A stretch of DNA of 16,544 bases, taken from IMG/VR virus record IMGVR_UViG_2695420569_000027. One strand, 5' to 3'. Source of the stretch: a virus. Taxonomy: Duplodnaviria; Heunggongvirae; Uroviricota; Caudoviricetes. Position 1 is the stretch's first letter, and every line of letters starts with the position of its first letter. Below the pieces are notes generated by a model that saw only the letters and a program-made list of their open reading frames with translations, made no database searches and was not told where the DNA came from. Shown here one piece after another: positions 2,054 through 16,544 of the stretch. Position numbers and translations under genes: made by a program.

Positions 2054-2176
2054 ATATGTCCTTTTATCACCACACCAAGACAAGCCATTGATTTAATTAA
2101 ATAATCTTCACTGAAAAAAGTGCCAAAAATCGCAAATTGACTACACCATTAACTACACCGTTCGGTGCACCGTATG

Positions 2177-2202
2177 AAACAACGTGGAACAAATAGACAC
2201 AA
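2177..2202. repeat. Three GAACAA-type hexamers phased at 10 bp (site C), near the island's left end
   Basis: aaacaa at 2177, gaacaa at 2187, acacaa at 2197. The 15-mer aacaacgtggaacaa (2178-2192) is identical to 9642-9656. Confidence 0.35.
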
Positions 2203-2515
2203 GAAATATACAGGCGGATCATCTTTCCAGGGGGAAGCGCACCAATTCATGAGGGGCGTTAATGTCTATATGGGGATCCCCACCTACCGGAATTTTTTTC
2301 CGGTTAAACGTTAATCAGGCTGGTGGGCTTTACCTGTTCGGTAGGTGTTATGATTATCGTAATACCTTTCCCCCAATGGGGTAAAAGCATCAACCGTAAC
2401 GAAAGTCGTTATGGTTGCCACTGATACCCCAAATTTGGGTATCACGAGTAAGCCCCAAAATCTGGGTGTTACTCTTACTACCCAAACTACGGGTAGTTTC
2501 CGTAGTTTCATGGTC

Positions 2516-2535
2516 GAGTTGCAGATCTGCAACTC
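2516..2535. repeat. Perfect 20-bp palindrome GAGTTGCAGATCTGCAACTC
   Basis: Direct reading; the second half is the reverse complement of the first. It sits in a palindrome-dense non-coding stretch (2270-2640). Confidence 0.6.
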
Positions 2536-2789
2536 CCCCATTAACCACAGGCGAATTTCCGCCTTCGGTCATTCCTTAATCATCTGCGTAATCATAATGA
2601 TTATTCAGCAAGCGCAATTTTGCGCTTTGCTTAAAGTTCAGCGAGTTACCGCGCCGACTTCCTCAAATTGAGGTTTCCGAAAATATCAGCGGGTTAGCGA
2701 TTAAGCTGACCATTAATTAAACTGCGAAAATGTCGTAGTTGTGAGGGGTGTAGCCAACCCATTTTTGGGCCGTCGGGAATATCAACCAG

Positions 2790-3071
2790 TTACCGCCGCA
2801 ACCGCTCCGGCTTCTTCCAGTGGTACGTTATTTTCTCCTTCTCCCGATACATCTCCACGCGGCGACGGTAGGCCAGCAACTCAAGAACTCTGGTTCGTAT
2901 GTTGCGCATATCCACGCCATTAAGTTCTATACCATCACGGCGCATCACCTCAGCAACAACACGCGCATAGTTTTCGGCTGTCACGCTGTCCGGCTGCGTG
3001 GCCTGTTCGTCAGCCTGCTGGCTGATTCCGGCAACGCGGCGGATTAATCCCGTTATTTCGGCTTCTGTCAT
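2790..3071 (-). CDS. Hypothetical protein (93 aa) immediately downstream of terL
   Basis: ATG at 3071 with GAGG about 9 nt upstream; 13-nt gap after the terL stop. No family recognised. Confidence 0.4.
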   Translation of the reverse strand: MTEAEITGLIRRVAGISQQADEQATQPDSVTAENYARVVAEVMRRDGIELNGVDMRNIRTRVLELLAYRRRVEMYREKEKITYHWKKPERLRR

Positions 3072-3084
3072 GCTGCTGACCTCA

Positions 3085-4746
3085 TTACACCCCGCTAAAT
3101 TCTTCCAGTTTCTGGCGGTGGCTGTCGCTTATATCAAAAGCAAAATCCTCATGCTCTGCCTGGAATGTACCAAACGCCATCAGCGCCGCCACGCTCGGGT
3201 CTATCTTGTTCGGTGATTTTTTCTTGTTCGGCTTGATATTGGCGTTCGCGTCACTCTGCATCACGACGTTACTCATCGACCAGGACAACACCGGATCGCC
3301 ACGATGCACAATCACCCTGCGGTTAACAAAAACTTCGAACGATTTCGCCGCCGGACTGAATCTGAGGTAGGTTTGCGGGAACGGCTCCACCTCAAAACCT
3401 GCCCCCTGTAATTGCGTTCTGAGATGCGTGGCGTTCCACGTATCAAAGCCCACCAGCCTGATATTAAATTTCTCCGCGTCCTGCATGATGTCATCTCTGA
3501 TCCGGTCGTAATCAATGCAGTCGCCAGGCGTTGTGCGTATCCAGCCTGCTTTAGCCCACTGACGATAGATGGCGCGGTTTTTATTGGCGGGGTTCTGTAG
3601 CTGGAACTCCGGCAGATAATGACGGGAAACCAGCATAATGGTTTTACCTACCGGAAAGGCATAGCACACGCTGGAAATATCGCTTGTGGATGATAAATCC
3701 AGCCCCGCGTAACACTCCTGGCCGTGTAAATCTTCCTCCGTGAACGTTCCGGCACACTCAGCCCATGCGCCGTTACCCATCCACGGGGTAGTCCCCTGAC
3801 ACCAGATATTAAATCGCTTTGTCATCATCTCCACCCACTGCGACGGAATACCCCGCGCTTTCTGGATGGTTGAGGCCAGTTTTTCACGATCCACGGAAAC
3901 ATCAATATTAGGGTTCGCCTTTATCCACATCGCCGGATCATCAACCTCGTTTTCGTCGTCCAGTTCGTAAATCAGTACAAAAATTGAATCGTTAACCTCT
4001 TCGCCGTCCAGGATCTGGCAGCAATAATCATAGTGCTGCTTACAGGCTGAAACGACGTTGCTGCCTGATGTGGTAATGGCAAATAACAGCCCTTCGGGAC
4101 GTGCGCCCATCCCCAGCTCAAGCGCGGAATAAACGCCGTTATCGGGGTGCAAGTGGTATTCGTCCACGATGGAAAGGCTGGGGTTTGTTCCCTCGATGGT
4201 TGCCGCTTTTGCTGCCAGCGGCTTTAACAGGCTGTTGCTTTTCGGGTGTATCACCTTATGCGCCTGAATATTCACCCGCCTGCGTAACGGTCGGGATAAA
4301 AGGCACATCTGACGCGCATCATCAAAGACGATCCGCGCCTGGTCACGGCTCACCGCTGCGGTGTAGATATCCTGCTGACCGTTCTCCATAATCAGAAACC
4401 AGTTAGCCAGAATCGCGGCGGTCGTTGATTTCGCATTTTTGCGCGGCACTTCGATAAAGGCGCTCGTATATTTGCGCCGTCCGGTGGCCTTAACCTTAAA
4501 GCCGAGGATGCACGCAAAGGCGAACTGCTGCCACGGCTCCAGCTCAATGGGTCTGCCACGCATCGGCCCTTTTACGTGCGGGCACACCCTGGAAAAGGCA
4601 ATAAACCGATCCACAACCTCACGATCGAACGTGTAAAGGGGGCTTTTAAGGTCCGAAAAGTACCGTTTAACGGCCTGTTTCAGCCGTTTACAGGCCGGAA
4701 TTTTGCCCGTTTTTACGTCTTCTGCGTACTTATTCCAGGCGGTCAA
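3085..4746 (-). CDS. terL: Terminase large subunit (TerL), HK97-like
   Basis: 553 aa; N-terminal ATPase with a Walker A-like motif (VPRKNAKST) and a C-terminal nuclease region typical of Terminase_1-type TerL. The start is TTG at 4746 with GAGGA 5 nt upstream, overlapping the terS 3' end by 17 nt. Confidence 0.92.
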   Translation of the reverse strand: MTAWNKYAEDVKTGKIPACKRLKQAVKRYFSDLKSPLYTFDREVVDRFIAFSRVCPHVKGPMRGRPIELEPWQQFAFACILGFKVKATGRRKYTSAFIEVPRKNAKSTTAAILANWFLIMENGQQDIYTAAVSRDQARIVFDDARQMCLLSRPLRRRVNIQAHKVIHPKSNSLLKPLAAKAATIEGTNPSLSIVDEYHLHPDNGVYSALELGMGARPEGLLFAITTSGSNVVSACKQHYDYCCQILDGEEVNDSIFVLIYELDDENEVDDPAMWIKANPNIDVSVDREKLASTIQKARGIPSQWVEMMTKRFNIWCQGTTPWMGNGAWAECAGTFTEEDLHGQECYAGLDLSSTSDISSVCYAFPVGKTIMLVSRHYLPEFQLQNPANKNRAIYRQWAKAGWIRTTPGDCIDYDRIRDDIMQDAEKFNIRLVGFDTWNATHLRTQLQGAGFEVEPFPQTYLRFSPAAKSFEVFVNRRVIVHRGDPVLSWSMSNVVMQSDANANIKPNKKKSPNKIDPSVAALMAFGTFQAEHEDFAFDISDSHRQKLEEFSGV

Positions 4747-5086
4747 GCTCGTCCTCTTCTTCTGTTTCCGGTGGATTTTTACGGCGGCTTATCGGGTCAA
4801 AACCGAGCAAGGAGGCCATTTTTATCATCACTCTTTCCGCGTCGGATTTCGCGCTTAATGCGGGGTTTCTGCTCTCTCCGCCCTGACTGTTAACAATGCT
4901 GAACCCGCGCGCCGCAAGGTCTGCGACGGCTTTCCGGTATATCGAGTAATTGACGCAATACAGTTCCAGATTGCTCCAGTCGGCGGGAGTCAGGTCACCC
5001 CGTTCCGCAAGCTGCCGCGATTTTTCCCGCCACTGCTTCACGGCGATATCATCCAGGTAGGCGGGGGCTTTCGGTGGTCTTGCCAT
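4730..5086 (-). CDS. terS: Terminase small subunit (TerS), P27-family-like
   Basis: 118 aa, acidic C-terminus; the position directly upstream of and overlapping terL, and the sequence character, fit phage P27-family small terminases. Confidence 0.8.
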   Translation of the reverse strand: MARPPKAPAYLDDIAVKQWREKSRQLAERGDLTPADWSNLELYCVNYSIYRKAVADLAARGFSIVNSQGGESRNPALSAKSDAERVMIKMASLLGFDPISRRKNPPETEEEDELDRLE

Positions 5087-5089
5087 GCT

Positions 5090-5375
5090 TATTTTTTCGC
5101 CAGATTATTTTTCAAAAAATTCCCGTGCATAAAAATTTGAGGAGGCGGTCGGTGCCCGGCGGGGTCGGGTTTGTCCTGAAAACGCCCCCCACCCCGTCAT
5201 ACAGCCTCATCAGCGATTGCGGAAACATTCCATAACCTCGCGGTCACGGTCGGTTAATCGCTTCGCTGTGATGCGTTCTGCGCATCCTGACGCTTTATCT
5301 TTATGCCCTGTTTCCTGTGTCTTCCATGCGTCACGCTGCCTTATAAGTCCACGGATAAGGCGGTTTTGTTCCCGC
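5090..5375. other. Candidate cos / packaging-initiation region between HNH and terS
   Basis: A 290-bp non-coding gap with a GC-rich core (gaggaggcggtcggtgcccggcggggtcgggtttgtcc, ~5139-5177) flanked by AT-rich tracts. HK97-type cos phages place cos upstream of terS and need the adjacent HNH nuclease. This is inference only. Confidence 0.3.
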
Positions 5376-5816
5376 TCATTCATCAGCGTCATACATCCAG
5401 TTATTGCGGTTAGCGGCCCGTTCTTCCTCTTCACGAAATCCACCTGCGGCACGCTTACTTTTTGTTGCCGGATCAAGCCATTTCGTTTTCTGGTTATGGC
5501 ACGCCTGACACAATGGTTGATGGTTCCATTCGGGCCAGAAGAGAACATCATCACCGCCATTAATCGGGATAATGTGATCCACCACCACGGCGGGCGTATA
5601 TATCCCCTTCTCAAGGCATCGCACGCATAACGGGTTTTTACTCAGATACATGGCGCGGTATTTGTCCCACTGTCTGGAGTACCCACGCGCGCGGCGGTGT
5701 CCTCGTCTGGCATCCTCTGCACGCCATGCCGCCCGCCTGTGCTCCTCACACTTGCCGGACTTCACGCGCCTGTTACAGCCTGGTTCTGTGCATCGTCTTA
5801 ATGGTTGCCACGGCAT
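5376..5816 (-). CDS. HNH endonuclease (phage packaging-associated)
   Basis: 146 aa with Cys-rich zinc-binding motifs (CTEPGC, CVRC, CQAC) and the HNH core (VVVDHIIPINGG ... CHNQKT). The start overlaps the stop of the connector gene (TGATG). Confidence 0.88.
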   Translation of the reverse strand: MPWQPLRRCTEPGCNRRVKSGKCEEHRRAAWRAEDARRGHRRARGYSRQWDKYRAMYLSKNPLCVRCLEKGIYTPAVVVDHIIPINGGDDVLFWPEWNHQPLCQACHNQKTKWLDPATKSKRAAGGFREEEERAANRNNWMYDADE

Positions 5817-6112
5817 CAGTACACCCCCACATCACGGTAAGCCGTCCAGAGTGCACCAATCGTCATGGGTACGCGTGTTTTTGCGTTATCCGCGACAATC
5901 TGGCGATTTTCATACAGGTGAGCGATAAACATCATGCAGCCAATCTTTATGGCTGGCGTGAACTCCAGCCCGTCATCAAAGCGCCTGCCTATGTGTATCT
6001 GGCACGCCTCAAGCGATGCGGCAATGTATCCGCTGATTAACTGGTCTTCCTCGTCGCCATCGATGCGGCAATGGAGTTTCACTTCTTCCAGGGTGATAAG
6101 TTCTTCTGTCAT
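5816..6112 (-). CDS. Head-tail connector protein (gp6-like)
   Basis: 98 aa; the N-terminus LITLEEVKLHCRIDGDEED is typical of phage gp6-like head-tail connector (Phage_connect_1-type) proteins. ATGA overlap with the upstream gene. Confidence 0.7.
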   Translation of the reverse strand: MTEELITLEEVKLHCRIDGDEEDQLISGYIAASLEACQIHIGRRFDDGLEFTPAIKIGCMMFIAHLYENRQIVADNAKTRVPMTIGALWTAYRDVGVY

Positions 6113-6447
6113 TTTTCCGCGCCCTCACGACAAAGAATTTCAAGGCGTGTCCTGGCGGCATCCGGCAGCGGCTGCCCGATGATATTCAGTACACGCCCCG
6201 CCAGCGGCCCCGTATTGACCTTTATCCGGCTGGTGGCGTTGATGTCCTTCCTGTAGCGTATCCATACCCTTACCGTTCCAGTCGCCAGTTCTGCACCCGA
6301 TGAAATGGCCTCCTTGCTGCTGATCATGTTCACGCTTGCCCAGAGTGTGTGACCGTCCACCCACGTTTCGAGTATTTCGCCCGTCATGGCTCTGGTCTGT
6401 TTCAGGGTCTGAATCGTTACCCTGTCACGCAGTCGCCCTATGTTCAT
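6109..6447 (-). CDS. Head closure / head-tail adaptor protein (HK97 gp7-like)
   Basis: Start moved to the internal ATG at 6447 (MNIGRLRDRVTIQ...), which overlaps the portal stop (ATGA) and has GGGAGA about 10 nt upstream. Size and position fit a head-tail joining protein. Confidence 0.65.
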   Translation of the reverse strand: MNIGRLRDRVTIQTLKQTRAMTGEILETWVDGHTLWASVNMISSKEAISSGAELATGTVRVWIRYRKDINATSRIKVNTGPLAGRVLNIIGQPLPDAARTRLEILCREGAEK

Positions 6448-7655
6448 TCCGGTTTTTCTCCCTCGCTGATTTTTACTTCCTGTTTCCATGCCTGGCTGAA
6501 CTCATCACCACCATCACGCGGTGACAGTCCTTCACGTTCGCGGGCTTCGTTCGGACACATAACGCCGGATTTGATGCCGCGCTCATAGGTGGCAAAGCGT
6601 TCGCCAGGTGTGGCCCGTAACAGGTCCGCGCTGTCAAACTCCACCTGATACCGGATACCAGGTACAGGCGAGGCCACCAGCAGGGCGTTTTTTATCTGCT
6701 GCTCAAAGTTCGCCAGCCACGGGCGCATCGTCATGGTGAGAAATGCGCGGCTTGCCTCGCTGAAATTGCTGTAGGTGCTGTTGCTGTATTCCTGCAAAAA
6801 AATCGGCGAGACGTTGAACATTCTGGCGATGTCTTCAATGGTGAAGCGACGGGAGGCCAGCCATTCAGCATCCTGATTACTCATGCCCAGCTGCTGATAG
6901 CTCATACCCCCTTCAAGGATGGGCGTTTTTCCGGCGTTTCTGGCCCCTTTGTAGCGTTCCAGTGCGGCTAATGCCTGTTTGCCCTTCACGCCGTCCAGCC
7001 ATTCGCCTGACGTGATAACCCCTGCCGCCATCATGCCATCACGCATCACGCTCGCGCCGTGGCGTTGTTGGGCCAGCCCAAGCCCCAGCGATTCGCGGCA
7101 GATGGTTACAGGTGAGCGCCCCATAAAACCGTCATCCGTGGAGTAACGAAGGTGGAGAACCTCCCACGGTAAATAGTTGCGGGTGTTTCCGGTGTAGGCG
7201 TCAGTGATGCAGTAGCGCCAGTTATGCTCACCTGTCTGCTCAACGTTCACCGACTGCGGCGGGTAAGGATGCAAAGCGACCGGAAAACCATCACGCCCCC
7301 ACTGAATCACCGCATAAGCATTACCGTTTAACAGGCAGTGGCGGATCATCATTCGCTTAAACTGGTAGGGGGTTTGCCATGCGTTCGGGCGCTCGTTGAG
7401 GATGTGATCGACCGGATGAGAATCAAGCCACTCGCGGGCCTCCTTCCCCTTCTCATTGCGTACCAGGTACAGGTAACACGGCATGGTAGCCACCGCCTCA
7501 GAGATGACCGTCACGGCGTTCATGACGGCGGGCAGTGATTCCGCTGTCCCCGATGATACGTACTCACCCGCCCCCGTGTTCGATGTGCCAGCCAGCGCCA
7601 TAAACTCATCAAGCGTCATGCTGCGCTGCTCTTTTTTTCTTCTGAAAGGCCACAT
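6444..7655 (-). CDS. Portal protein, HK97 family
   Basis: 403 aa; its position between protease and adaptor and its sequence character fit HK97-family portals. Confidence 0.9.
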   Translation of the reverse strand: MWPFRRKKEQRSMTLDEFMALAGTSNTGAGEYVSSGTAESLPAVMNAVTVISEAVATMPCYLYLVRNEKGKEAREWLDSHPVDHILNERPNAWQTPYQFKRMMIRHCLLNGNAYAVIQWGRDGFPVALHPYPPQSVNVEQTGEHNWRYCITDAYTGNTRNYLPWEVLHLRYSTDDGFMGRSPVTICRESLGLGLAQQRHGASVMRDGMMAAGVITSGEWLDGVKGKQALAALERYKGARNAGKTPILEGGMSYQQLGMSNQDAEWLASRRFTIEDIARMFNVSPIFLQEYSNSTYSNFSEASRAFLTMTMRPWLANFEQQIKNALLVASPVPGIRYQVEFDSADLLRATPGERFATYERGIKSGVMCPNEAREREGLSPRDGGDEFSQAWKQEVKISEGEKPE

Positions 7656-7656
7656 A

Positions 7657-8229
7657 TCACCCCCCCGCTAAATCCGCCCACCAGCGGCGATTATCCGCAC
7701 GCGGCATTTTTTCGGGGTGCTGCTCATACAGGGAACGGCGGGCCAGCTCCACGTCGGAATCAGGGTAAGCCGGTACGGATGTGACGGTAATTTCGTACAG
7801 TTCCGCCACCAGCACGGTGCGCACGCATGGATCTGTTGTGGTATCCCATACATCCTTACGGGAACGAAAGCCAAAGCTCATGCCGGATATATCACCTCGT
7901 TTAACCAGTTCGATAACGTCGCGCCCTGTACTGGTATCCGGTGGGGTCAGTTCAAAGCGTAACCCTGTTTCGTCCTCTTCCAGTTTCAGCGTGCCGGAAC
8001 GGGTGCGCCCCAGTAACATGCTGTGGTCATGCTCATACAGGCCGCGAACGTCATTACCCGCCGCAAGCCATTCAGTAAACGCCCCCCGCTGGAATTTTTC
8101 GTAAAACTCACCCCATAACAGTTCTGAAAGCTTATCCCAGCGAACAATGTAGCCCGTCAGCGTACCGGCTCCGCTGGTGGTGATTTCCGATGACCGGATT
8201 TCCATACTCTTCATAATTTTTTCACCCAT
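7657..8229 (-). CDS. Prohead maturation protease, HK97 family (S78/U35)
   Basis: 190 aa with the GMSFGF motif region typical of HK97 prohead proteases. The start may instead be the ATG at 8214, which has GGTGA upstream. Confidence 0.88.
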   Translation of the reverse strand: MGEKIMKSMEIRSSEITTSGAGTLTGYIVRWDKLSELLWGEFYEKFQRGAFTEWLAAGNDVRGLYEHDHSMLLGRTRSGTLKLEEDETGLRFELTPPDTSTGRDVIELVKRGDISGMSFGFRSRKDVWDTTTDPCVRTVLVAELYEITVTSVPAYPDSDVELARRSLYEQHPEKMPRADNRRWWADLAGG

Positions 8230-8231
8230 AA

Positions 8232-8258
8232 AACACTAAAGGGGCTTTTAAGCCCCTT
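8232..8258 (-). terminator. Stem-loop between capsid and protease genes (possible partial terminator / attenuator)
   Basis: An 8-bp stem (8239-8246 pairs with 8251-8258, core ggggct/agcccc) with loop ttta, followed on the minus strand by UAGUGUUUUAUGGG. Confidence 0.35.
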
Positions 8259-8268
8259 CTGTATGCTA

Positions 8269-9426
8269 TTAATCGTCGTCCTGTGGCAGTTCCAGAATCT
8301 TGATCGCGTTCGAATCCACCACGCCACCGCCTAAATATTTCTGCGCGAAAATTTTGATGAAGCCCGGCTCTGTGAGGTTGTCCGGTCTGGTGCGAACACC
8401 TGTTTCGTGATCAACAATGTAGTAACCGCGTTTGAAGTCACCCAGGGCAATAACGTTATCCGGCATAAACTCCAGATATTCGACCGGAAGGCCCAGCAAC
8501 GTATCAGGATCACCCGCCTGTAAACGGTCACGCCAGATGTAATCACCGTTCGCGTTCTTCACCTTCTGGAGTTTTGCCGCCGTCGTGGAGTTAACCACCC
8601 AGACCGCGTTTTTGCGGTATTTTTTACGTAATGCAAATTTCAGGTCGATCAGCGGGTCCGCAGATGTCCACGCCAGAGATTCGGAAGGTTTAATTACCTG
8701 CAACGTACCAAAATCACGCTCTTTGTCGTTCTTCTCTGCACGGGGTACGGATAAAAAGCCTTTTGCTTTTTTGTCACCGTCGCCCACAACCAGATCGCTT
8801 TCTTCGGTTTCCGTGAAGGTGTCGCCAATCTCGCCCGTCAGCCATGAAAGGATGTCCACATCGGAAAAATCCACGATTTCCTGCGTGGTGCGCGGGTACG
8901 CATAGACCGGATACAGCTTAATGCTCACCTCGTTAATCTGCGGGGTGCTGGTCTGTTCGCGTGCCTTACCCTCTTCACCGTGGTTAACGGTCGCACCGCC
9001 AGCGGAAACAAGCTGCTTAAACTCGTTGCTGCTGATTTTCTTCACGGTACAGATGCGGCGCATGGTGGATTCATCCGTCAGCATTCGCATGATTTCGGTG
9101 TTCAGTTCGGGGATAACGGTATAACCACCATCAGCGGGAACGCCTGTACTCAATGCGCGGGTTTCACCTGTCAGAATGTAGTGACGTAGTTCGGCGGGGT
9201 CAGTGGTCTGGCTGTTTTTGCCTGGTTTACTGCGCTCTTCGTCAGCAACGGCCTCAAGGCGGGAGATGTCTTTATCGAGGGATTCAGCTTTAGCGCGTAA
9301 TTCGTCAAATTTTGCGCCCTCAGCATCGTTAAGGCTGCGGTTTTCTTTTTCCGCGTTCTCCAGCATGTCGCGCATCTGATTTTTAATGGCGGTTTTCTGC
9401 TGGCGTAATTCGATTATTCTCGGCAT
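8269..9426 (-). CDS. Major capsid protein, HK97 fold, with N-terminal delta/scaffold-like domain
   Basis: About 385 aa from the ATG at 9426 (the track ORF begins at an upstream GTG at 9474). The N-terminal ~100 aa are coiled-coil rich, like an HK97 delta domain, followed by a capsid core. Confidence 0.9.
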   Translation of the reverse strand: MPRIIELRQQKTAIKNQMRDMLENAEKENRSLNDAEGAKFDELRAKAESLDKDISRLEAVADEERSKPGKNSQTTDPAELRHYILTGETRALSTGVPADGGYTVIPELNTEIMRMLTDESTMRRICTVKKISSNEFKQLVSAGGATVNHGEEGKAREQTSTPQINEVSIKLYPVYAYPRTTQEIVDFSDVDILSWLTGEIGDTFTETEESDLVVGDGDKKAKGFLSVPRAEKNDKERDFGTLQVIKPSESLAWTSADPLIDLKFALRKKYRKNAVWVVNSTTAAKLQKVKNANGDYIWRDRLQAGDPDTLLGLPVEYLEFMPDNVIALGDFKRGYYIVDHETGVRTRPDNLTEPGFIKIFAQKYLGGGVVDSNAIKILELPQDDD

Positions 9427-9517
9427 AAAAAAAGTCCTGAAGTTAAGTAAGGAACTCCAGGACGCGGCAAACACTCAACCGTTTTTCATAAGGAAATCAG
9501 CAATCGCACCGATCGTT

Positions 9518-9563: not shown

Positions 9564-9640
9564 AGTGGCCCCAGCGTCCTGGCACCACGGGCGAGAATAA
9601 TCATGATTCAGTTCGGGTAAAATATGCCGATCCGGTCAGC

Positions 9641-9666
9641 GAACAACGTGGAACAACCACGAACAA
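9641..9666. repeat. Three GAACAA hexamers at exact 10-bp phasing (site B), upstream of the capsid operon
   Basis: gaacaa at 9641, 9651 and 9661. 17 of 18 bases match the reverse complement of 15223-15240, and 15 of 15 match 2178-2192. Confidence 0.4.
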
Positions 9667-9684
9667 ATAATTTACAAAACATGA

Positions 9685-9707
9685 CAAAAAGCCGGATTGC
9701 TCCGGCT
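9685..9707 (-). terminator. Rho-independent terminator after the PerC-like gene
   Basis: Minus-strand RNA AGCCGGA-GCAA-UCCGGCU (7-bp GC-rich stem, GNRA-type loop) followed by UUUUUGU. Confidence 0.55.
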
Positions 9708-9713
9708 GTGTGA

Positions 9714-9986
9714 TTATCTGTCCTGGTAATTTCGCCATATTTCATCACCAGCACCATCCATACCCATTTCGGCATAAGTGCGATCGACCGCCTTTTTCAG
9801 GTCTCCGTAATTATCCGGCGGCTCCGGTGGCCTCTGTGCCTTCCTGGAACATTCCAGCCGTCGCATCGTGATGTGATGCCGTTCCTTGTCTGTCTCCACC
9901 AGTTGCATGACTTCACCCCATCGCGCCGACGCTCTCCGGTAAAAGCCTTTCGCCTCCAGTTCTTCCGCTATGCGGTCATGTACCAT
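9714..9986 (-). CDS. PerC-family-like transcriptional activator (putative)
   Basis: From the ATG at 9986: MVHDRIAEELEAKGFYRRASARWGEVM..., which matches my recollection of the PerC/Pch signature (LE.KG..RRA..RW). The ssb stop is 13 nt upstream. Confidence 0.5.
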   Translation of the reverse strand: MVHDRIAEELEAKGFYRRASARWGEVMQLVETDKERHHITMRRLECSRKAQRPPEPPDNYGDLKKAVDRTYAEMGMDGAGDEIWRNYQDR

Positions 9987-9998
9987 CGTCCCCACCCC

Positions 9999-10409
9999 TC
10001 AGAACGGAATATCATCACCGTAAGGGTCATCGCCTCCCGCTGGTGGCTGATTACCCTGTGTGCCTGTGGTCTTGCGTCGGCTCCCACCAAGACGTGCCGC
10101 ACGGGCACTGATTACGCTGTCTGCAATAACCTGATAACCCTGCCGCGTTTCCCCGTTCTGTCCGGTCCACTGGCTGACCTGCATCGTGCCGGATACGCTG
10201 GCAACGTCGCCTTTTTGATGTTTAGCCAGGAAGTCGGCCTGCTTACCAAATGCGATGACCGATAGCCATAACGTCGCCTGTCCATCCTGTGCCTGGCTGC
10301 ATGGCAGCGATACCGCCATACGCGCCAGCGTCATCGGTGTACCCTTGCTGGTCTGTTTTACCTGCGGGTCGTCCACCAGCCGCCCGTAAGCTGCAATTTG
10401 TGCTGTCAT
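9999..10409 (-). CDS. ssb: Single-stranded DNA-binding protein
   Basis: 136 aa with an OB-fold-like N-terminus, a Gly/Pro-rich linker and the hallmark acidic tail ending DDIPF. GAGGTG lies 6 nt upstream of the ATG. Confidence 0.92.
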   Translation of the reverse strand: MTAQIAAYGRLVDDPQVKQTSKGTPMTLARMAVSLPCSQAQDGQATLWLSVIAFGKQADFLAKHQKGDVASVSGTMQVSQWTGQNGETRQGYQVIADSVISARAARLGGSRRKTTGTQGNQPPAGGDDPYGDDIPF

Positions 10410-10418
10410 ATTGCCACC

Positions 10419-10724
10419 TCAGTGAAGCGATCCGGCGTTGTTCTTTTTCATCTCTTCCATCATTTTTTCAGTGAGCATTACGCACTGAAAACCCATGTTT
10501 TTGATGTCTACGGGCTTCATGCCTTTATCAGTGGATATCACAGGCAGAATATCCTGATACACATCGCGGTCAGGGTAACTAAGCACACAAAGCGCCCATG
10601 ATGCCACGGGTGAGGATCCTTCGTCTGTTTCAACCCACCAGCCTGGTGTAGCTGCGCTTATTTGCTGAATCGTGATCCGTCCGTTGTGCTTGTAAAGTTT
10701 TTCACCAAATTTTGGTTCGCTCAT
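10419..10724 (-). CDS. Hypothetical protein (101 aa)
   Basis: ATG at 10724 with GGAGAG 8 nt upstream, overlapping the upstream stop (ATGA). No family recognised. Confidence 0.5.
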   Translation of the reverse strand: MSEPKFGEKLYKHNGRITIQQISAATPGWWVETDEGSSPVASWALCVLSYPDRDVYQDILPVISTDKGMKPVDIKNMGFQCVMLTEKMMEEMKKNNAGSLH

Positions 10725-10972
10725 GATTCCAACTCTCCGGTTTTAACGTTGATGGTTGTTACCTGTTCCGCTTCGGCAATCTCCCGTTCTGTCAGCGTGG
10801 CAAAGTTTGCCGCCGCCGTGGTCATGAATGCGCTTATCAGGTCGGGATGTTCCTTCGCGTATCCTTCCCGCGTGTGGCGGTCTATCGTTCTGATTGCCAC
10901 CTTTAAGGTGTGCTCAGTCATGTCTAACGCTTTATATTTTGGCTCTGTTCTGTCTCTGCGTTTTTGGGTCAT
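10721..10972 (-). CDS. Hypothetical protein (~83 aa)
   Basis: Start moved to the ATG at 10972 (GAGAGG upstream), because the track's GTG-initiated N-terminus is translated from the iteron repeats. Confidence 0.4.
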   Translation of the reverse strand: MTQKRRDRTEPKYKALDMTEHTLKVAIRTIDRHTREGYAKEHPDLISAFMTTAAANFATLTEREIAEAEQVTTINVKTGELES

Positions 10973-10984
10973 TTCTCGCAACCT

Positions 10985-11174
10985 CTCACTTTTTCGCCTC
11001 ACTTTTTCAAGCGTCTCACTTCGTCGCAGTTGGGATTTTCGGTTTTTCTATGTGTGTGTTTCATAAGTATTTTTTCACCCCTCACTTTTGAGGATGTATA
11101 CAGGTCGAAAAGTGAGGGGGAGCGGGCTAATTTTGGCCCTCTTTCTATCCCCCTCGCTTTTGCTCCTCACTTTT
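10985..11174. repeat. Iteron cluster (CTCACTTTT) flanking an AT-rich core: candidate replication origin
   Basis: CTCACTTTT at 10985, 10998, 11081 and 11166; variants at 11015 and 11153; an inverted copy (aaaagtgag) at 11108. An AT-rich tgtgtgtgtt tract lies between the clusters. The whole region is immediately 3' of the rep gene. Confidence 0.5.
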
Positions 11175-12573
11175 ATAGCGGCGCTACATCATCCCCATCG
11201 ATACGAATAACCCCATCTTTTTCCAGCTTGTACAGCCAGCGCCGGAAGTTTTTCATTTCATACCCCAGCTTTTTCATGTCATCACGTAACATCTGGATCG
11301 TGCACTTGTCGCCGTTCTGTGTGCGTGAACGGATGCACCCCCATAGCGCGGTATGGTTTTCCGTCTTGTTCCCTGCCTCCTCGATGCGCTCCAGTTCAAC
11401 AGGAGGGCGCGGATCATCCACCACCACCAGCGACGTGATTAATTCACCGTCAGCGTCGGTAAAAAGCTCCACCACGCGTAAGTCATATGCGGCTTCTTTG
11501 AGTTCCTCCGCGTCCTTCATTTTGGTGCATGAGATAACCAGCGCTTCGCTTCCTGCGTCCTCCCTGCGTATCCGGTATTCAGCATCCAGCGAAGCACGAA
11601 ATGCACTGGAACCGCGCGCGCCTTTCGTCTCATCCTTGCCGGAATGGTGAACCACCAGCACCGTGGCCCCTGTGCGTCGTTTCAGTTCGTCACAACCACG
11701 GATAAACGCCCCCATATCACGGGAATCATTTTCATCATTCCCACCAAAGCAACGCGCCAGCGTATCCAGAATAATCATGCGTACAGGTTTACCCGTTTCC
11801 CGCTCCACCTGACGGGCAGCGATAACCATTTCATCAACATCAAGCGGGGCAGCCGGAAAGATGGGGCGGTTTACCAGATACAGATTTTTCACCTGCTCAT
11901 CGTGCACAACCTCCCAGGCTTTTACACGACGCGGAACACCTATACCGCCTTCACCAACCACATAGAGAACCGCACCATGTGCAACCCTGCGGCCTCCCCA
12001 CTGGCGACCAGTGGCAACATGGCACGCCCACGATCCGGCAAGGAATGATTTATAGGACCCGCTAGCCCCGTATATGCTGCATAGCGATACCGCCGGAATA
12101 ATCCCCTTAACCACGTAATCCAGTTGCGTGTCGTATCCGGTAGATCCAACGCTCATCGGTAGCGTGGTTTTTCGCTGGTGGTTTTTTTCTTCCGCCGGCT
12201 CTTTCCCGCGCACCCGTTCCAGGTATTCGCGCCAGTTCTCCCGCATATGGCTGTGCATCCCTTCGGGGTAATAATTCGCATCAGTTACGCCCGCCGCCGC
12301 CAGCTTGTGCGCAATGGCATTAATATTTGATGGCCTGATGTGGCCTGCCTTGTACAGCCGGACACAATAGCGCCCCTCGTCGATGATTCTCAGGTCTGCC
12401 AGTTCATCCAGTTGATCATCAGCCAGCACAATGGGAGGCACATTATCGCCAGCCAGTCGCCCGTCCTGTTCCTGCCACTGTTTCGCATGTGCCCACGCAT
12501 CACTACCCGCAAAAATGATGACTTCGGTCATCTTGTCGTAAGGCTGTTTTTTTAAGTTCGGTGCGCTTTTCAT
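11173..12573 (-). CDS. Replication initiator with AAA_25 / RecA-like ATPase domain (PICI Rep-like)
   Basis: 466 aa with Walker A (GASGSYKSF), Walker B-like (MIILDTLARCF) and the HHSGKD motif typical of RepA/AAA_25 replication ATPases. Which satellite Rep subfamily it belongs to is not resolved. Confidence 0.8.
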   Translation of the reverse strand: MKSAPNLKKQPYDKMTEVIIFAGSDAWAHAKQWQEQDGRLAGDNVPPIVLADDQLDELADLRIIDEGRYCVRLYKAGHIRPSNINAIAHKLAAAGVTDANYYPEGMHSHMRENWREYLERVRGKEPAEEKNHQRKTTLPMSVGSTGYDTQLDYVVKGIIPAVSLCSIYGASGSYKSFLAGSWACHVATGRQWGGRRVAHGAVLYVVGEGGIGVPRRVKAWEVVHDEQVKNLYLVNRPIFPAAPLDVDEMVIAARQVERETGKPVRMIILDTLARCFGGNDENDSRDMGAFIRGCDELKRRTGATVLVVHHSGKDETKGARGSSAFRASLDAEYRIRREDAGSEALVISCTKMKDAEELKEAAYDLRVVELFTDADGELITSLVVVDDPRPPVELERIEEAGNKTENHTALWGCIRSRTQNGDKCTIQMLRDDMKKLGYEMKNFRRWLYKLEKDGVIRIDGDDVAPL

Positions 12574-12869
12574 TTCTTGCCCCTGAATCCGTTAACCATG
12601 GTTTTCAGCTTCTGGATGTTTGCCCGTGCCCTGGCGTTGCTGGTGGGCACGTTATGCGGCGCGGTCTGTACCAGAGAAAAATCACGCCGGAACTGATAAA
12701 CAGGCATCACGCAATCATATTCGTAACCTTCACGGCGGTAGGTTACGCGCCGTTCTTCCACGCCCTTAATCATTACCGTGCCGCCGTACTGGTCGCGGTA
12801 AATATCACCGCGCGTAAATTTAGGGTGAGTGTTGCCACTGGCAGTTAAGCCAGAATATTTAAGTTTCAT
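12570..12869 (-). CDS. Hypothetical protein (99 aa)
   Basis: Stop overlaps the rep start (ATGA); part of the tightly packed operon. Confidence 0.5.
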   Translation of the reverse strand: MKLKYSGLTASGNTHPKFTRGDIYRDQYGGTVMIKGVEERRVTYRREGYEYDCVMPVYQFRRDFSLVQTAPHNVPTSNARARANIQKLKTMVNGFRGKK

Positions 12870-12874
12870 TATTT

Positions 12875-13108
12875 TTATTCTCCGGTGTGCTGTTCTTTAT
12901 ATCTGTCGTGCAATAGATCTATTTCTTGCAGTTCCATTATTACAGGCTCAAGAAGCGTTATTAATGCCGTGGCAATTCTTGATTTTTGTTTGTCGCGTTC
13001 ATTGTCGCCAAGTGTTTCAAGCCATATGCGCAATATTTCCAGCATGTTTTCACTGTGAGAAAGTGCAAGAAATGCGCGGTCTATTGTTTGGTGGTAAATA
13101 TCACGCAT
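12875..13108 (-). CDS. Hypothetical protein (77 aa)
   Basis: Overlaps the upstream gene by 8 nt; predicted helical. Confidence 0.45.
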   Translation of the reverse strand: MRDIYHQTIDRAFLALSHSENMLEILRIWLETLGDNERDKQKSRIATALITLLEPVIMELQEIDLLHDRYKEQHTGE

Positions 13109-13565
13109 GGCTTACATCCTCAGGAAATTTTCTTCTATAACGCGCCTCTGCCACATATTCCGCATAATCGGCGGCGATATTCAGTACATCAAGCCCCGTT
13201 GATTTATATTCTCTCGTGGAAAGTAAGAAAAAAGCCGCTCTAATAAGTTCTGGCATTGACGAAAGCGCATCAGCCGCATCATCAGGAACGCCGGAAAATT
13301 CCTGTTTCAGGGAATTAAAACGATCATCACGCATAACCCCCCCATTTTCACAATCAGCAATCAGGATAGCTTTGGCCTCATTCAGCGCCGTATCAGCACT
13401 AAATTGCATGACAGCCAGTGAGTGAGGAACGAAAGCACCGGCATATTCTGTTTCGCTGGTGGCGTGCTTATGTGCCCTGTCCGCGATAACAGAAATATCA
13501 ATCAGCGCGTGCATCAGCGTTTTGATGGCTTCGGCGGCTGCGTCCGGTGTGGTTTTATTGTGCAT
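13101..13565 (-). CDS. Hypothetical protein (154 aa)
   Basis: Largest unassigned ORF in the early operon; start overlaps the upstream gene's 3' end. Confidence 0.55.
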   Translation of the reverse strand: MHNKTTPDAAAEAIKTLMHALIDISVIADRAHKHATSETEYAGAFVPHSLAVMQFSADTALNEAKAILIADCENGGVMRDDRFNSLKQEFSGVPDDAADALSSMPELIRAAFFLLSTREYKSTGLDVLNIAADYAEYVAEARYRRKFPEDVSHA

Positions 13566-13767
13566 AAAGCATCCCCTGAATATTCGTGTTAATCATTCCG
13601 GCACGTTTTGTGATTTCCTGTAATGATTCCCTTGTGGCGACAATTGCTTCATCTGGTAAGTGGTAATTACACACCACGCGACCTTTATCCACATTGACCA
13701 GTAGCTGCCCTGTGAATTTCTCACGAAACTGAATGCGGTTAAGGTCAGTAAGTGACAGATTAATCAT
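13555..13767 (-). CDS. Hypothetical protein (~70 aa)
   Basis: Start at the internal ATG at 13767 (MINLSL...) with AGGAGG 6 nt upstream; the track ORF extends further upstream. Confidence 0.45.
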   Translation of the reverse strand: MINLSLTDLNRIQFREKFTGQLLVNVDKGRVVCNYHLPDEAIVATRESLQEITKRAGMINTNIQGMLYAQ

Positions 13768-13957
13768 GGCGCACCTCCTGACGAATACGGGCGGCAAATA
13801 CAGCAACACAACCGGACGGGCAACGGTTACGCGCTTCGCGTTCCGTCCAGGCGGTTACGTGGATGATTTGAGATTCTCCGGCACTCAGTGCCAGAAAACG
13901 CCACACAAAGGCCGTTTGTGTGTGTACAAGGTGTGGTATATGATTTACGGCAACCAT
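13760..13957 (-). CDS. Small hypothetical protein (~65 aa), first gene of the minus-strand early operon
   Basis: ATG at 13957 preceded by AGGAG 5 nt upstream; the stop overlaps the next start. The remainder of the 314-aa track ORF upstream is judged spurious. Confidence 0.3.
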   Translation of the reverse strand: MVAVNHIPHLVHTQTAFVWRFLALSAGESQIIHVTAWTEREARNRCPSGCVAVFAARIRQEVRHD

Positions 13958-14045
13958 AACGGCTCCTAGTTTACGTTGTTGGTTAGACGCCCCGTATGTG
14001 TTCCCAGCACTGCGGGGCGTTGATTTTTGTGTAATGGCAAGTACA

Positions 14046-14090
14046 ATGGTAATTACCATGTAGGTATAGTAATAAAGGGTAATTACCATG
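14046..14090. promoter_or_regulatory. Paired palindromic operators (GGTAATTACC core) overlapping the divergent promoter region
   Basis: ATGGTAATTACCAT at 14046-14059 is a perfect 14-bp palindrome; GGTAATTACC recurs at 14078-14087 directly before the ATG at 14088 (30 bp centre to centre). A TATAGT -10-like hexamer at 14065-14070 lies between them. Confidence 0.5.
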
Positions 14091-14261
14091 TCAACACCAT
14101 TAGAAAAACGTTCGCCTCCATACCAAATGCGATTACCGGAAGACTTCAGAGCGCAGCTAGAAGAAGCAGCTAAGGCCGATGGCGACACATCTTTAGCCAC
14201 TTGGATTAAACGCGTTCTCCGCAAAGAATTACAGCAACGCGGCATAGAACCCAAAGGATAA
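14088..14261 (+). CDS. Arc/MetJ-type ribbon-helix-helix DNA-binding protein (57 aa), putative repressor
   Basis: Not in the ORF track (under 60 aa). MSTPLEKRSPPYQMRLPEDFRAQLEEAAKADGDTSLATWIKRVLRKELQQRGIEPKG has the beta-strand/helix/helix pattern of Arc-like repressors, and the start codon is embedded in the operator palindrome. Confidence 0.6.
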   Translation: MSTPLEKRSPPYQMRLPEDFRAQLEEAAKADGDTSLATWIKRVLRKELQQRGIEPKG

Positions 14262-14318
14262 AAACTATCAGCGCCGTGGTGTGAGGTATTACGGCGCATT
14301 GCTATGCAGGACAACACA

Positions 14319-14492
14319 ATGACCGATAAAGAATTGACCAAAACATTATCACCGGCACGGAAAAGACGGCGCAGAAAGATAGAGCATGAATCAGAAAGAT
14401 TCGCGCCATGTGCTTTTGCCCTTGAGCAATTCCTTAAAGAGTACAGGGAAACGCGCCCATTGCAGGTATGGCAACGAACTGAACCAGACTGA
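14319..14492 (+). CDS. Small basic protein (57 aa), co-oriented with the RHH gene
   Basis: Internal ATG at 14319 with AGGA 8 nt upstream (MTDKELTKTLSPARKRRRRKIEH...). No family recognised; it may be non-coding. Confidence 0.3.
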   Translation: MTDKELTKTLSPARKRRRRKIEHESERFAPCAFALEQFLKEYRETRPLQVWQRTEPD

Positions 14493-14587
14493 TAGCATTG
14501 CCCACCAGCCTGATAGCGGCTATCATCCCCGTGCTTATGTTTGGGATCATATACACATAAGGCGCAGCGGGTTATCTGTTCAGAAAG

Positions 14588-14615
14588 GCGGCTCCATTTC
14601 GGGGCCGCTTTTTTT
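14588..14615 (+). terminator. Rho-independent terminator for the plus-strand RHH module
   Basis: GCGGCUCC-AUUUC-GGGGCCGC (8-bp stem with one G-U pair) followed by seven T. Confidence 0.55.
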
Positions 14616-14761
14616 ATGCCTGAAAAACCCCAATTTTGTGGTTTTCCAGTCTCACCAGGGCGAACGAATCCCCGCCCACGTTCTGGCGTATATTCAATCT
14701 TCATGGTTATAGCTCTGTGTTCAGATGATTGATGTGTGGCGGCTGTGTGCCGCCAGCGTGA

Positions 14762-14950
14762 TTAATGAACTGCCTTGCAGCTATCCTTCCAGGCCAGAAC
14801 CTCGGATAAAGACCAGCCAACGGAACGACCGCCAAGTTTACGACGTGATGGGAATTGTCCGGCCTTTTCCAGGCGGTAGCGACACGTACGGCTAAGGCCG
14901 GTTAGTTTTTCGCATTCTTTTTCACGTATAAACCGATCAGTGCTTAACAC
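14762..14950 (-). CDS. alpA: AlpA-family transcriptional regulator / excisionase-like protein
   Basis: 62 aa; EKLTGLSRTCRYRLEKAGQFPSRRKLGGRSVGWSLSEVLAWK matches the AlpA (Phage_AlpA) winged-helix signature. GTG start with GGGGG upstream. Confidence 0.88.
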   Translation of the reverse strand: MLSTDRFIREKECEKLTGLSRTCRYRLEKAGQFPSRRKLGGRSVGWSLSEVLAWKDSCKAVH

Positions 14951-15222
14951 TATTGCCCCCTTTCGTTTCTTAAAGAGTCATCAGGTGTCTTATTGTGTCG
15001 TATTGTTCCCGCTAGAGTGATGAATGGCAAATACTGAGGATGTATGATTTACAGAAAATGAAAAAGTAAGAATAAAATCTTTTAAATTCATGTTAATACA
15101 AAGGCATAAAATATTGTTCCATGCCTTTTTTCTCGCTCTTTAAAGAGTGATTCGCTAGTGTATAAAAAACCAGTAACACATTAAAAATCAGCTACTTATA
15201 AATCCGTACGCTTTTTCGCCTC

Positions 15223-15275
15223 TTGTTCGTAGTTGTTCCACATTGTTGCTCATTGTTGCACGTTGTATCTGTTCG
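15223..15275. repeat. Five to six TTGTTC-type hexamers at exact 10-bp phasing (site A), in the int-alpA intergenic region
   Basis: ttgttc at 15223 and 15233, ttgttg at 15243 and 15253, ttgtat at 15263, tgttc at 15270. The first 18 bp are the reverse complement of site B with one mismatch. Confidence 0.45.
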
Positions 15276-15314
15276 CATATCCAGTATGCGCATACTGAAA
15301 AAACACGAAAAAAA

Positions 15315-16544
15315 TTATTTTCTTCTGGCTACTGGTAGCGTGGTTACGTTTTCATGTGTTCCCGCCAGTATCCCTAACCGCTCCGTCCACATATCCAGCG
15401 CATTGCGTTTCGCATCCAGATAACGGGAATGATTATAAACTCGCTGCATTCCTGGCATCTGGTGGCCTGTAAGCTGCTCCACGACATGCGGATCAACGCC
15501 TAAATCGTTCAGCATGGTTGTAAAGGTGCGCCGGATGTCATGCAGTGACCAGTGAGGGTGATTAAGCCTCCTGTGCGCTAATCTTCCATACTGCGATACG
15601 CTGGCCTCCTGTTTCACTTCCCCCAGCAATAAGCCCGTGTGCCTGTTCTGCTCCACCAGCTGCGTGATGAACGGCAGTATTGCTTCCGGTATAGGCCGGA
15701 ATATGGCTACCTTCGTTTTGCTGTGCTCCTTCGGAACGGTCCAGAGCATTTCGGTAAAATCCCACTCGCTGATCTCCGATAACCTCAGTTCTACCGTCCG
15801 GCATCCGAACACAATCAGGAGGCGGATTAACGCGATGTAGTAGGGGGAGAATATTTTTTTGTCCAGTGCCTGCAATAATTCGCCCAGTTCTTTGGTGCTT
15901 AAGACACGCTCGCTTATATCCGGTTTTTTCCCAACGTCCGCCACACTCATATCATCAAGAACGTTGCTGATTGCATAGCGCCGCCTCCGGCAGAACTTAA
16001 GCGCCTGTTTGCACGTCTGTAGCAAGAATCCGGCAGTAACAGGCGTTCGCTTTGCCACCTGGTCAAAACAGGCCAGCCAGTGCCGTAGCTCGCATTTATC
16101 CAGCGGCATAGCACCAATGTGCTGTATTACGTGATTATTAAGGCGCTTTTTCAGGGCGGCATAATCCACGCGGTTTTCCTTTGCGTACGACTCAAGCCAG
16201 TAGGTGAGCGCATCGCCAACCGTTACCGGCTTTAACGCTTCCTGTACGGTGTAATTAAGCTCATGACGTGGATTTTTCCCCTCTGCCAGCCATGCGCGAC
16301 ACTGGGCGGCTTTTTCCCTGGCTGATTTCAGGCTCAGATCAGGATAATTTCCCAGCTTAATGCGTTCCGGTGGTGCCCCCCTTCCCGTTCCGGCCCTGTA
16401 AGTGAAATACCAGGTTAAAAGGCCACTGGTTGAATGCCTGACGCTCAGGTTTCCACCGTCATTAAGAAAGGCTGTTTTTTGGGCGGGTGTGCCGTTGATT
16501 TTCCTCAGCTGTGTATCGCTCAGTTTGTTAAGTGCTCTGCTCAT
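15315..16544 (-). CDS. int: Tyrosine integrase, P4-type (N-terminal arm-binding domain)
   Basis: 409 aa; the start codon is the final three bases of the window. N-terminal arm-DNA-binding-like region (LSVRHSTSGLLTWYFTYR) and catalytic residues in the C-terminal half (HDIRRTF, then Y in VYNHSRYL). Confidence 0.93.
   Translation of the reverse strand: MSRALNKLSDTQLRKINGTPAQKTAFLNDGGNLSVRHSTSGLLTWYFTYRAGTGRGAPPERIKLGNYPDLSLKSAREKAAQCRAWLAEGKNPRHELNYTVQEALKPVTVGDALTYWLESYAKENRVDYAALKKRLNNHVIQHIGAMPLDKCELRHWLACFDQVAKRTPVTAGFLLQTCKQALKFCRRRRYAISNVLDDMSVADVGKKPDISERVLSTKELGELLQALDKKIFSPYYIALIRLLIVFGCRTVELRLSEISEWDFTEMLWTVPKEHSKTKVAIFRPIPEAILPFITQLVEQNRHTGLLLGEVKQEASVSQYGRLAHRRLNHPHWSLHDIRRTFTTMLNDLGVDPHVVEQLTGHQMPGMQRVYNHSRYLDAKRNALDMWTERLGILAGTHENVTTLPVARRK

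Follow-up and report, generated by a model that had tools for sequence, protein, structure and literature searches.

What kind of element follows phoQ in a 16,544-nucleotide stretch of Caudoviricetes DNA (IMG/VR record IMGVR_UViG_2695420569_000027; "the window" below means this whole stretch), and has it been seen before? A first-pass annotation, read from the letters without database searches, had proposed a capsid-forming phage-inducible chromosomal island (cf-PICI), a satellite with its own head and packaging genes that would borrow tails and lysis from a helper phage, and had left undecided whether the island and its insertion site were already catalogued. Both are catalogued. With high confidence, we identify the island as a cf-PICI of the EcCIEDL933 lineage (also CP-933C, O-island 51 [OI-51] or Sp7). 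It is not a new element but a close variant of an already known one, sits at the prototype's own chromosomal site, and the variant is common in sequenced Escherichia coli.

Identity with the prototype island

EcCIEDL933 is the prototype cf-PICI (Alqurainy et al., bioRxiv 10.1101/2022.09.08.507074), and the element in strain EDL933 entered the catalogues in 2001 as cryptic prophage CP-933C or OI-51, its name in strain Sakai being Sp7 (SpLE2, considered as the Sakai name, was rejected; SpLE2 lies at cobU-yeeB). In 2009, excision, replication and packaging were shown for Sp7 despite its "highly degraded" look. O157 outbreak genomes have been listed with a 10.4-kb "prophage" at roxA-phoQ, and a survey with SatelliteFinder counted 969 cfPICIs, which occur in 13% of the Enterobacteriaceae genomes. 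Of 5,426 complete E. coli genomes, 162 contain at least 80% of the present island in one place.

The cf-PICI assignment of the first-pass annotation holds at the protein level. The major capsid protein is identical at 380 of 385 residues (98.7%) to chain B of PDB 9GYI, which its depositors describe as the EcCIEDL933 capsid's cryogenic electron microscopy model, and all nine packaging proteins are full length and 94.6 to 100% identical to those of the prototype, as are Int (99.5%), AlpA (100%), SSB (97.8%) and Icd (95%) at comparable levels. The EDL933 element (chromosome NZ_CP008957.1) occupies the same roxA(ycfD)-phoQ site, with the same attachment (att) core and the same gene order. The two islands differ in their replication modules, EcCIEDL933 carrying a 710-aa DUF927 Rep and another origin region in place of the 466-aa RepA found here (only 125 aa align), and in three to four accessory genes, those at 10419-10724 and 12875-13767 having no match or a weak match in EDL933. 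EcCIEDL933 is also ~800 bp longer (15,461 versus ~14,664 bp here), has an extra ~330 bp with a 74-aa open reading frame (ORF) between perC and the capsid gene, has RgdR and PerC proteins 81 and 88% identical to those here, and ends in a different non-coding block (six ATCARCNRGTTA repeats and no hairpin array, against an array and three repeats in the window). A swapped rep-ori module is the main difference between the two, with the head and packaging module kept at 95 to 100% protein identity; module shuffling between PICI and cfPICI backbones has been described before. A nearer relative is the island of strain FORC_042 (NZ_CP025318.1, 2872003-2886788), which is 98.5% identical at the DNA level over 98% of its length and shares the RepA module, the site and an identical terminal block, and which differs in an indel or variable patch in the alpA-icd leader (window 14335-14564). 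The RepA module itself (at least 80% of it) is present in 505 of the complete E. coli genomes, in 305 of these at ≥99% identity.

Insertion site and boundaries

Nearly all of the window from ~2050 to its end is encoded on the minus strand, and GC skew is negative throughout. A P4-type integrase has inserted the island at a 10-bp core, AAATATGTCC, that overlaps the stop codon of phoQ; the insertion directly after phoQ proposed at first reading is therefore upheld, the TAA of phoQ falling within 2052-2061 and the prototype lying at the same site. The core was defined by comparing the empty K-12 attachment site (AAATATGCCC) with two occupied genomes, FORC_042 and EDL933, in both of which a second copy of AAATATGTCC lies 172 bp past the int ATG (position 22838 of locus L001 in FORC_042). 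Core-to-core distances are 15,461 bp in EDL933 and 14,785 bp in FORC_042, and the core assignment is validated because the former fits the published EcCIEDL933 size of 15.4 kb. No tRNA gene is present in the window, and a tRNA as integration target was rejected in favor of the phoQ 3' end. The int start codon forms the very end of the window, so that ~180 bp of the island (arm repeats plus the second att core) should lie beyond it, and extrapolation gives an island of ~14,664 bp, within the satellite size range (~10-16 kb). Of the extent first given for the element, 2100-16544, the element itself stands, but its start moves to 2052-2061 and its end passes the window by ~180 bp.

A direct repeat shared between the 2054-2170 region and the far end of the island had been anticipated, and was found: in both FORC_042 and EDL933 the core recurs there together with a TTAACTACACC doublet, located between int and the second core. 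Tandem TTAACTACACC doublets also adjoin the att of an unrelated PICI and are likely to be integrase arm-binding sites. Contiguous tail or lysis genes just past the window, which would have spoken for a phage, are absent from the 98.5% identical FORC_042 island, in which roxA starts 249 bp past int, right after the second core, with no tail or lysis gene between; in EDL933, too, roxA directly follows int.

The host flank on the phoQ side is disturbed. Upstream of phoQ only the last ~36 codons of phoP remain (window 1-595), such that the host appears to have no intact phoP there, whereas phoP is intact in FORC_042. Window positions 1-354 (minus strand) code for the C-terminal portion of an IS256-like transposase, positions 220-486 hold the left end of insertion sequence (IS) IS2 with the first part of its orfA, and the IS2 fragment joins the phoP remnant at 478-486 through a 9-bp overlap (AAGTCTTAC). 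This IS2-phoP junction had no match in the complete E. coli genomes or in genome_contigs (GTDB representative genomes), and could reflect a deletion or rearrangement mediated by IS elements, or else a chimera of the assembly.

Head and packaging module

The head and packaging genes form one tight minus-strand operon of HK97 type, running from 9426 down to 3085 in the order capsid, protease, portal, head closure, connector, HNH, 60-aa ORF, TerS and TerL (nine genes), followed by a 93-aa ORF (Table 1). Functions of these and the other genes rest on Pfam, NCBIfam or PHROG matches well above threshold, and every gene listed at first reading (head, cos-packaging, int, alpA, AAA_25 Rep and ssb) was recovered on the minus strand by Pfam and NCBIfam. 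The capsid-first, terL-last order, noted at that stage as unlike HK97, equals the order published for proteobacterial cf-PICIs (capsid-protease-portal-connectors-hnh-terS-terL). The capsid differs from that of the prototype at five positions (V60I, N71S, H82N, A155T and A361T), and these substitutions miss all features proven essential by mutagenesis (D257, K290, D295, E319, R345 and the loop 227-248). In EcCIEDL933 the motif SxGxxAD marks the mature N terminus of the capsid protein and begins at residue 93; here it also begins at residue 93 (S93-T-G-V-P-A-D), and residues 1-92 (window 9151-9426) are therefore the delta domain that the first-pass annotation had named. Substitutions relative to EDL933 fall at first, second and third codon positions in the proportions 8/1/59 in terL, 2/1/18 in portal, 4/1/20 in capsid and 2/0/20 in int, and this concentration at third positions argues that the head and packaging genes and int are under purifying selection.

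The island has its own HNH, TerS and TerL (98.4 to 100% identical to the prototype's); an HNH endonuclease is needed for HK97-type cohesive-end (cos) cleavage. A cos site is likely to lie in the 123-bp gap at 5087-5209, for which the evidence is suggestive: the gap is nearly identical in EDL933, contains inverted arms of a G-run and a C-run (GGGGTGGGGGG ... CCCGACCCCGCC) as well as an A/T-rich block (CAAATTTTTATGCACGGGAATTTTTTGAAAAATAA) that is also conserved in Pmp8 of Pasteurella, and corresponds to the gap in which both ends of the linear vB_KppS-Ant record fall. The termini of packaged DNA are predicted near GGGGTGGGGGGCGTTTTCAGGAC|AAACCCGACCCCGCC inside this gap. Three terminator-like hairpins, which are consensus matches only, were noted on the minus strand at 9690-9707 (right after perC), 9434-9463 (immediately before the capsid start) and 8238-8259 (directly after the capsid stop codon); they suggest transcriptional insulation between the replication module and the head operon, and attenuated read-through beyond the capsid gene.

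Table 1. Features of the island and its phoQ-side flank, in window coordinates.
Feature	Position	Strand	Evidence
phoQ	593-2053	+	Flanking host gene, 486-aa ORF; aligns 97-99% to EDL933 and FORC_042 phoQ
att core AAATATGTCC, phoQ-side island end	2052-2061		10-mer found again past int in FORC_042 and EDL933
Tandem arm-type repeats TTGACTACACC / TTAACTACACC	2137-2159	+	TRF period 12
Array of five adjacent hairpins	2377-2575		Fold z-score -7.0 and -7.6 on the two strands, relative to shuffled sequence
Three ATCARCNRGTTA 12-mers, spacing 48 and 96 bp	2637-2792	+	Directly after packaging operon
93-aa protein after terL	2790-3071	-	phrog_1561 E 3e-56; 87% to EDL933 counterpart
TerL	3085-4746	-	TerL_ATPase 1e-25 and TerL_nuclease 1e-50; 98.4% to prototype
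TerS, P27 family	4730-5086	-	Terminase_4 1e-23, NCBIfam sm_term_P27; 100% to prototype
Putative cos region	5087-5209	-	123-bp gap between 60-aa ORF and terS
60-aa protein, counterpart of EcCIEDL933 gene 1792	5210-5392	-	phrog_3173; 98.3% to prototype
HNH endonuclease	5376-5816	-	Pfam HNH; 99.3% to prototype
Head-tail connector, gp6-like	5816-6112	-	Pfam Phage_connect_1, TIGR01560; 100% to prototype
Head closure / head-tail adaptor	6109-6447	-	Pfam Phage_HCP, TIGR01563; 94.6% to prototype
Portal	6444-7655	-	Pfam Phage_portal 9e-91; 99.5% to prototype
Prohead serine protease	7657-8229	-	Pfam Peptidase_S78 2e-48; 96.8% to prototype
Major capsid, HK97 fold	8269-9426	-	Phage_capsid E 1e-61; NCBIfam major_cap_HK97 2e-88
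PerC-family (PchE-like) transcriptional activator, cargo or regulator	9714-9986	-	Pfam PerC E 3e-43; 87.6% to EDL933
SSB	9999-10409	-	Pfam SSB; 97.8% to prototype
Two small proteins	10419-10724, 10721-10972	-	phrog_27268 and phrog_1231
Iteron cluster, putative replication origin	10975-11172	3' of rep	Exact CCTCACTT copies; origin function putative
RepA-family helicase (AAA_25), 466 aa	11173-12573	-	Pfam AAA_25 E 2e-43
DUF4222 protein, RgdR family	12570-12869	-	Pfam DUF4222; RGD motif at residues 20-22; 80.8% to EDL933 copy
Three accessory proteins	12875-13108, 13101-13565, 13555-13767	-	Match PHROGs of unknown function
Icd-like cell-division inhibitor	13760-13957	-	NCBIfam phage_ICD_like E 5e-18; 95% to EDL933 copy
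Probable non-coding leader between alpA and icd	13958-14761	-	Hypothetical protein (247-286 aa) in RefSeq annotation of relatives
AlpA, regulator/excisionase	14762-14950	-	Pfam Phage_AlpA 5e-17; 100% to EcCIEDL933 AlpA
P4-type tyrosine integrase	15315-16544	-	Pfam Arm-DNA-bind_3 and Phage_integrase; 99.5% to EcCIEDL933 Int

Replication, regulation and cargo genes

The remaining half of the island holds a PICI backbone, namely an integrase, an AlpA-type regulator and an AAA_25 RepA replication gene. The RepA gene is intact, its 1401 bp equalling the FORC_042 annotation. Next to it, the iterons of the origin predicted at first reading proved real: CCTCACTT occurs in four exact copies, all within 176 bp (10997-11172), where 0.30 would be expected and none of 200 shuffles reached four, and degenerate and inverted copies are found in the same cluster; the role of this cluster as replication origin is putative. 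The small protein encoded at 10721-10972 is 90% identical to an EDL933 protein, whereas that at 10419-10724 has no EDL933 counterpart. Among the three accessory proteins, those of 154 aa and 70 aa had no match in EDL933 and the 77-aa protein aligned weakly (26% over 58 aa); none of the three gave a PADLOC match to an anti-phage defence system.

Two ORFs that look annotated fuse in frame at 13760-14704, with the coding look confined to the icd-like part at 13760-13957. The rest of this region, 13958-14761, is probably a non-coding leader: its substitutions relative to EDL933 are spread over codon positions (38/42/50, compared with the 8/1/59 of terL) alongside 47 gap columns, its RNA fold z-score is -3.7, its AT skew is unusually positive, and family searches with it returned no match. 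No antisense RNA of C4/CI type emerged upstream of the icd-like gene from an Rfam scan of the whole window (E ≤ 0.1).

Two of the genes encode relatives of virulence regulators. In 2011, OI-51 was shown to promote expression of the enterocyte effacement locus (LEE) and colonisation of sheep through RgdR, a 99-aa protein of the DUF4222 family. RgdR of OI-51 activates LEE1, its RGD motif is functionally important, and OI-51 together with RgdR raises LEE type III secretion and ruminant colonisation in enterohaemorrhagic E. coli (EHEC); OI-51 also encodes PchE, the name given there to the PerC-family protein.

Predicted life cycle

Experiments on EcCIEDL933 provide the template for the life cycle of the variant described here. 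The prototype is induced by helper phages HK106 and HK446 via alpA, and its alpA mutant shows neither induction nor transfer. Genes of its packaging operon are each required for transfer but not for replication, with the mutant of gene 1792 severely impaired in transfer rather than abolished. Mutants in helper capsid or terminase genes leave EcCIEDL933 unaffected, whereas helper tail mutants abolish its transfer. Its capsid is a 47.5-nm, T=4 shell of HK97 fold without the HK97 covalent crosslink, its packaging is of the HNH-dependent cos type, and it makes filled, tail-less capsids even without a helper, free tails being acquired after release. Tail specificity is set by adaptor and connector, such that HK106 tails fit EcCIEDL933 and HK022 tails do not.

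By homology, a helper phage would trigger expression of alpA, after which the island would excise and replicate from the iteron origin with its own RepA helicase and SSB. The nine-gene operon would then build small T=4 procapsids of HK97 fold, from which the S78 protease would remove the delta domain, and TerS, TerL and HNH would cut and package unit-length island DNA of ~14.7 kb at cos, probably at 5087-5209. Lysis of the cell by the phage would release tail-less, DNA-filled heads, which would turn infectious by joining free siphovirus tails through adaptor and connector. An HK106-type tail preference is predicted because the connector is 100% and the adaptor 94.6% identical to those of the prototype. 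On this homology we infer the activity of the present copy, its helper and its tail specificity, and that the island makes its own small capsids, packages only island DNA in them and needs only tails from a helper.

Alternatively, the island might be a cf-PICI by descent that can no longer be mobilised in this host, a resident fossil mainly carrying the RgdR-family and PerC/PchE-like regulators. Several observations are compatible with such a fossil: the prototype is induced by none of the 17 resident prophages of EDL933 and few transductants arise, the phenotype of OI-51 deletion is one of LEE expression and colonisation rather than transfer, the adjacent host locus has been rearranged by IS elements, and the int-side att lies beyond the window. 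Nonetheless, we consider it unlikely, as all core genes are full length with third-position substitution bias, the rep gene is intact at the FORC_042 length, Sp7, whose rep gene is fragmented, still undergoes spontaneous excision, replication and packaging, and the prototype yields its tail-less capsids without a helper. Assignment to an EcCIEDL933-type cf-PICI nevertheless faces points of its own that weigh against it. The int-side att core and flanking gene lie outside the window, which means that the right boundary is carried over from near-identical islands, and with the host locus rearranged (IS2 fragment and truncated phoP) the region past int could differ too. Furthermore, the experiments pertain to the prototype, from which the island departs in its replication module and in several accessory genes, and the cos position is read from conservation and the ends of one database record.

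Class membership and relatives

When the island was compared with the cfPICI model of SatelliteFinder, 11 of 11 core components were present and both forbidden classes (tails and holins) were absent. Tail, tape-measure, baseplate, holin and lysin/endolysin families were found in no island ORF, including ORFs in gaps and on the other strand, in agreement with the first-pass reading; the gap ORFs matched no PHROG and therefore conceal no tail or lysis gene. In DNA comparisons with 50,697 phage genomes, any one record covers 14% of the island at most, and matches are at ~78% identity. The four closest capsids in this set are 59 to 66% identical and belong to vB_KppS-Ant (16.5 kb) and Pasteurella Pmp8 (15.3 kb), both satellite-sized with an int-rep-head-terminase layout, to a 3.8-kb fragment of Salmonella S.Kent 1-2-1 and to the 106.5-kb Klebsiella phage P12620-1; phages of ~40 kb come next (e.g., ST64B and Yersinia YeP phages), with capsids ≤40% identical. 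Low identity to phage capsids reproduces the published observation of only a distant relationship between the head genes of cf-PICIs and the genes of phages. The elements vB_KppS-Ant (LR881103) and Pmp8 (OR544139) share with the island their module order, satellite size and a conserved motif block between HNH and terS, and differ in integrases, replication genes, cargo and host genera.

Could the locus instead be the head half of a degraded HK97-like prophage whose tail and lysis genes were deleted? Before 2022, Sp7/CP-933C was indeed called a "highly degraded prophage", and the head proteins have the HK97 fold and belong to HK97-type families. Likeness to HK97 extends to the capsid fold with delta domain and SxGxxAD site, the S78 protease, the portal, the gp6-like connector, head closure and HNH-dependent cos packaging. 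However, gene order is the reverse of that in HK97 and agrees with cf-PICIs, sequence identity is low, HK97 has the tail and lysis genes that the island lacks, and the prototype capsid is T=4 rather than T=7 and without the K169-N356 crosslink. A decaying prophage is also hard to reconcile with an identical gene set and identical boundaries recurring in 162 complete genomes, with an island bounded by att cores and nothing beyond int in FORC_042 and EDL933, or with an att-bounded element that has none of the tail, tape-measure, lysis-cassette and repressor-switch parts of a temperate prophage. No phage record covers the island beyond the small fraction given above, the head proteins do not group with a degraded prophage (capsids of true phages reach 40% identity at most, and the nearest "phage" records have sizes of 15-16.5 kb themselves), the int-alpA-icd-DUF4222-rep-ssb half is a PICI backbone, and the prototype is an experimentally proven functional satellite. 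A prophage remnant is thus highly improbable.

Classical PICIs (EcCICFT073 or CP073-3, and a clpS-adjacent PICI of strain 1919D62) share the int-alpA-icd-DUF4222-rep-ssb backbone, the TTAACTACACC arm repeats and the terminal hairpin block, and differ in lacking portal, protease, connectors, HNH and TerL, in using helper capsids and in having a lambda-type cosN. It is scarcely credible that the island is itself a classical PICI, which would form no capsids, or a P4-like satellite, which would remodel those of a helper, even with its P4-type integrase, AlpA, icd-like gene, DUF4222 gene, classical E. coli PICI replication-module layout and chromosomal site identical to that of the CFT073 PICI, for it carries portal, connector, adaptor and TerL, which the PICI model forbids, its cos-region sequence is unlike the lambda cosN of a classical PICI, and family searches found no Psu, Sid, Delta or P4 alpha primase, the P4-like features being limited to integrase and AlpA.

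Two side observations concern these relatives. In vB_KppS-Ant (LR881103.1), a 765-aa ORF at 2036-4333, directly after terL, is labelled "tail length tape measure protein" where the window has its 93-aa ORF; either the label is wrong or a cf-PICI carries an unusual cargo gene here. After the prototype, the Rhodobacter capsulatus gene transfer agent has the closest solved capsid (6TB9/6TBA, E 4e-47); its portal, too, is among the PDB portal matches (E 8e-20), which points to a shared small-capsid HK97 lineage.

Terminal non-coding block

Between the packaging operon and the phoQ-side att lies a non-coding block of hairpins and repeats. A 123-bp part of the hairpin array is 94% identical in the classical PICI beside clpS in strain 1919D62, where its position, after the last gene and before att, is the same as here. 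The hairpin block occurs in 664 of the 5,426 E. coli genomes, with a median of a single copy and without annotation in any of them; it was found neither in EcCIEDL933 nor in any phage record searched, and Rfam gave no family anywhere in the window, this block included, at E ≤ 0.1. The equivalent EDL933 region (L003 15859-16249) has six copies of ATCARCNRGTTA, and none of 100 shuffles reached seven matches; one copy follows the hairpin block in the 1919D62 PICI. With their variable copy number, the ATCARCNRGTTA repeats look like a protein-binding array. A cos or remnant lambda-type cos was rejected as an explanation of the block for the classical PICI, in which the lambda cosN GGGCGGCGACCT lies upstream of terS, and a dispersed repeat (repetitive extragenic palindromic [REP] or enterobacterial repetitive intergenic consensus [ERIC] type) was rejected given its median of one copy per genome and its location at satellite ends. 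Tentatively, and with considerable doubt, the hairpin array and spaced ATCARCNRGTTA repeats might represent a cis-acting element or a non-coding RNA that has not been described before in PICIs of enterobacteria. If so, the terminal block would be distinct from known cos, ori and att sites, and may serve in processing or termination of the late-operon transcript or as a protein-binding array in packaging or excision.

Implications

As a discovery the island is of little value, though reading its sequence alone sufficed to recognise a cf-PICI, and the analysis gives precise coordinates for the att core, the arm repeats and the probable cos of the lineage. The carriage of RgdR-family and PerC/PchE-like regulators, which affect LEE type III secretion in EHEC, makes the island relevant for strain annotation. 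It also illustrates how the backbones of PICIs and cf-PICIs exchange their replication modules.

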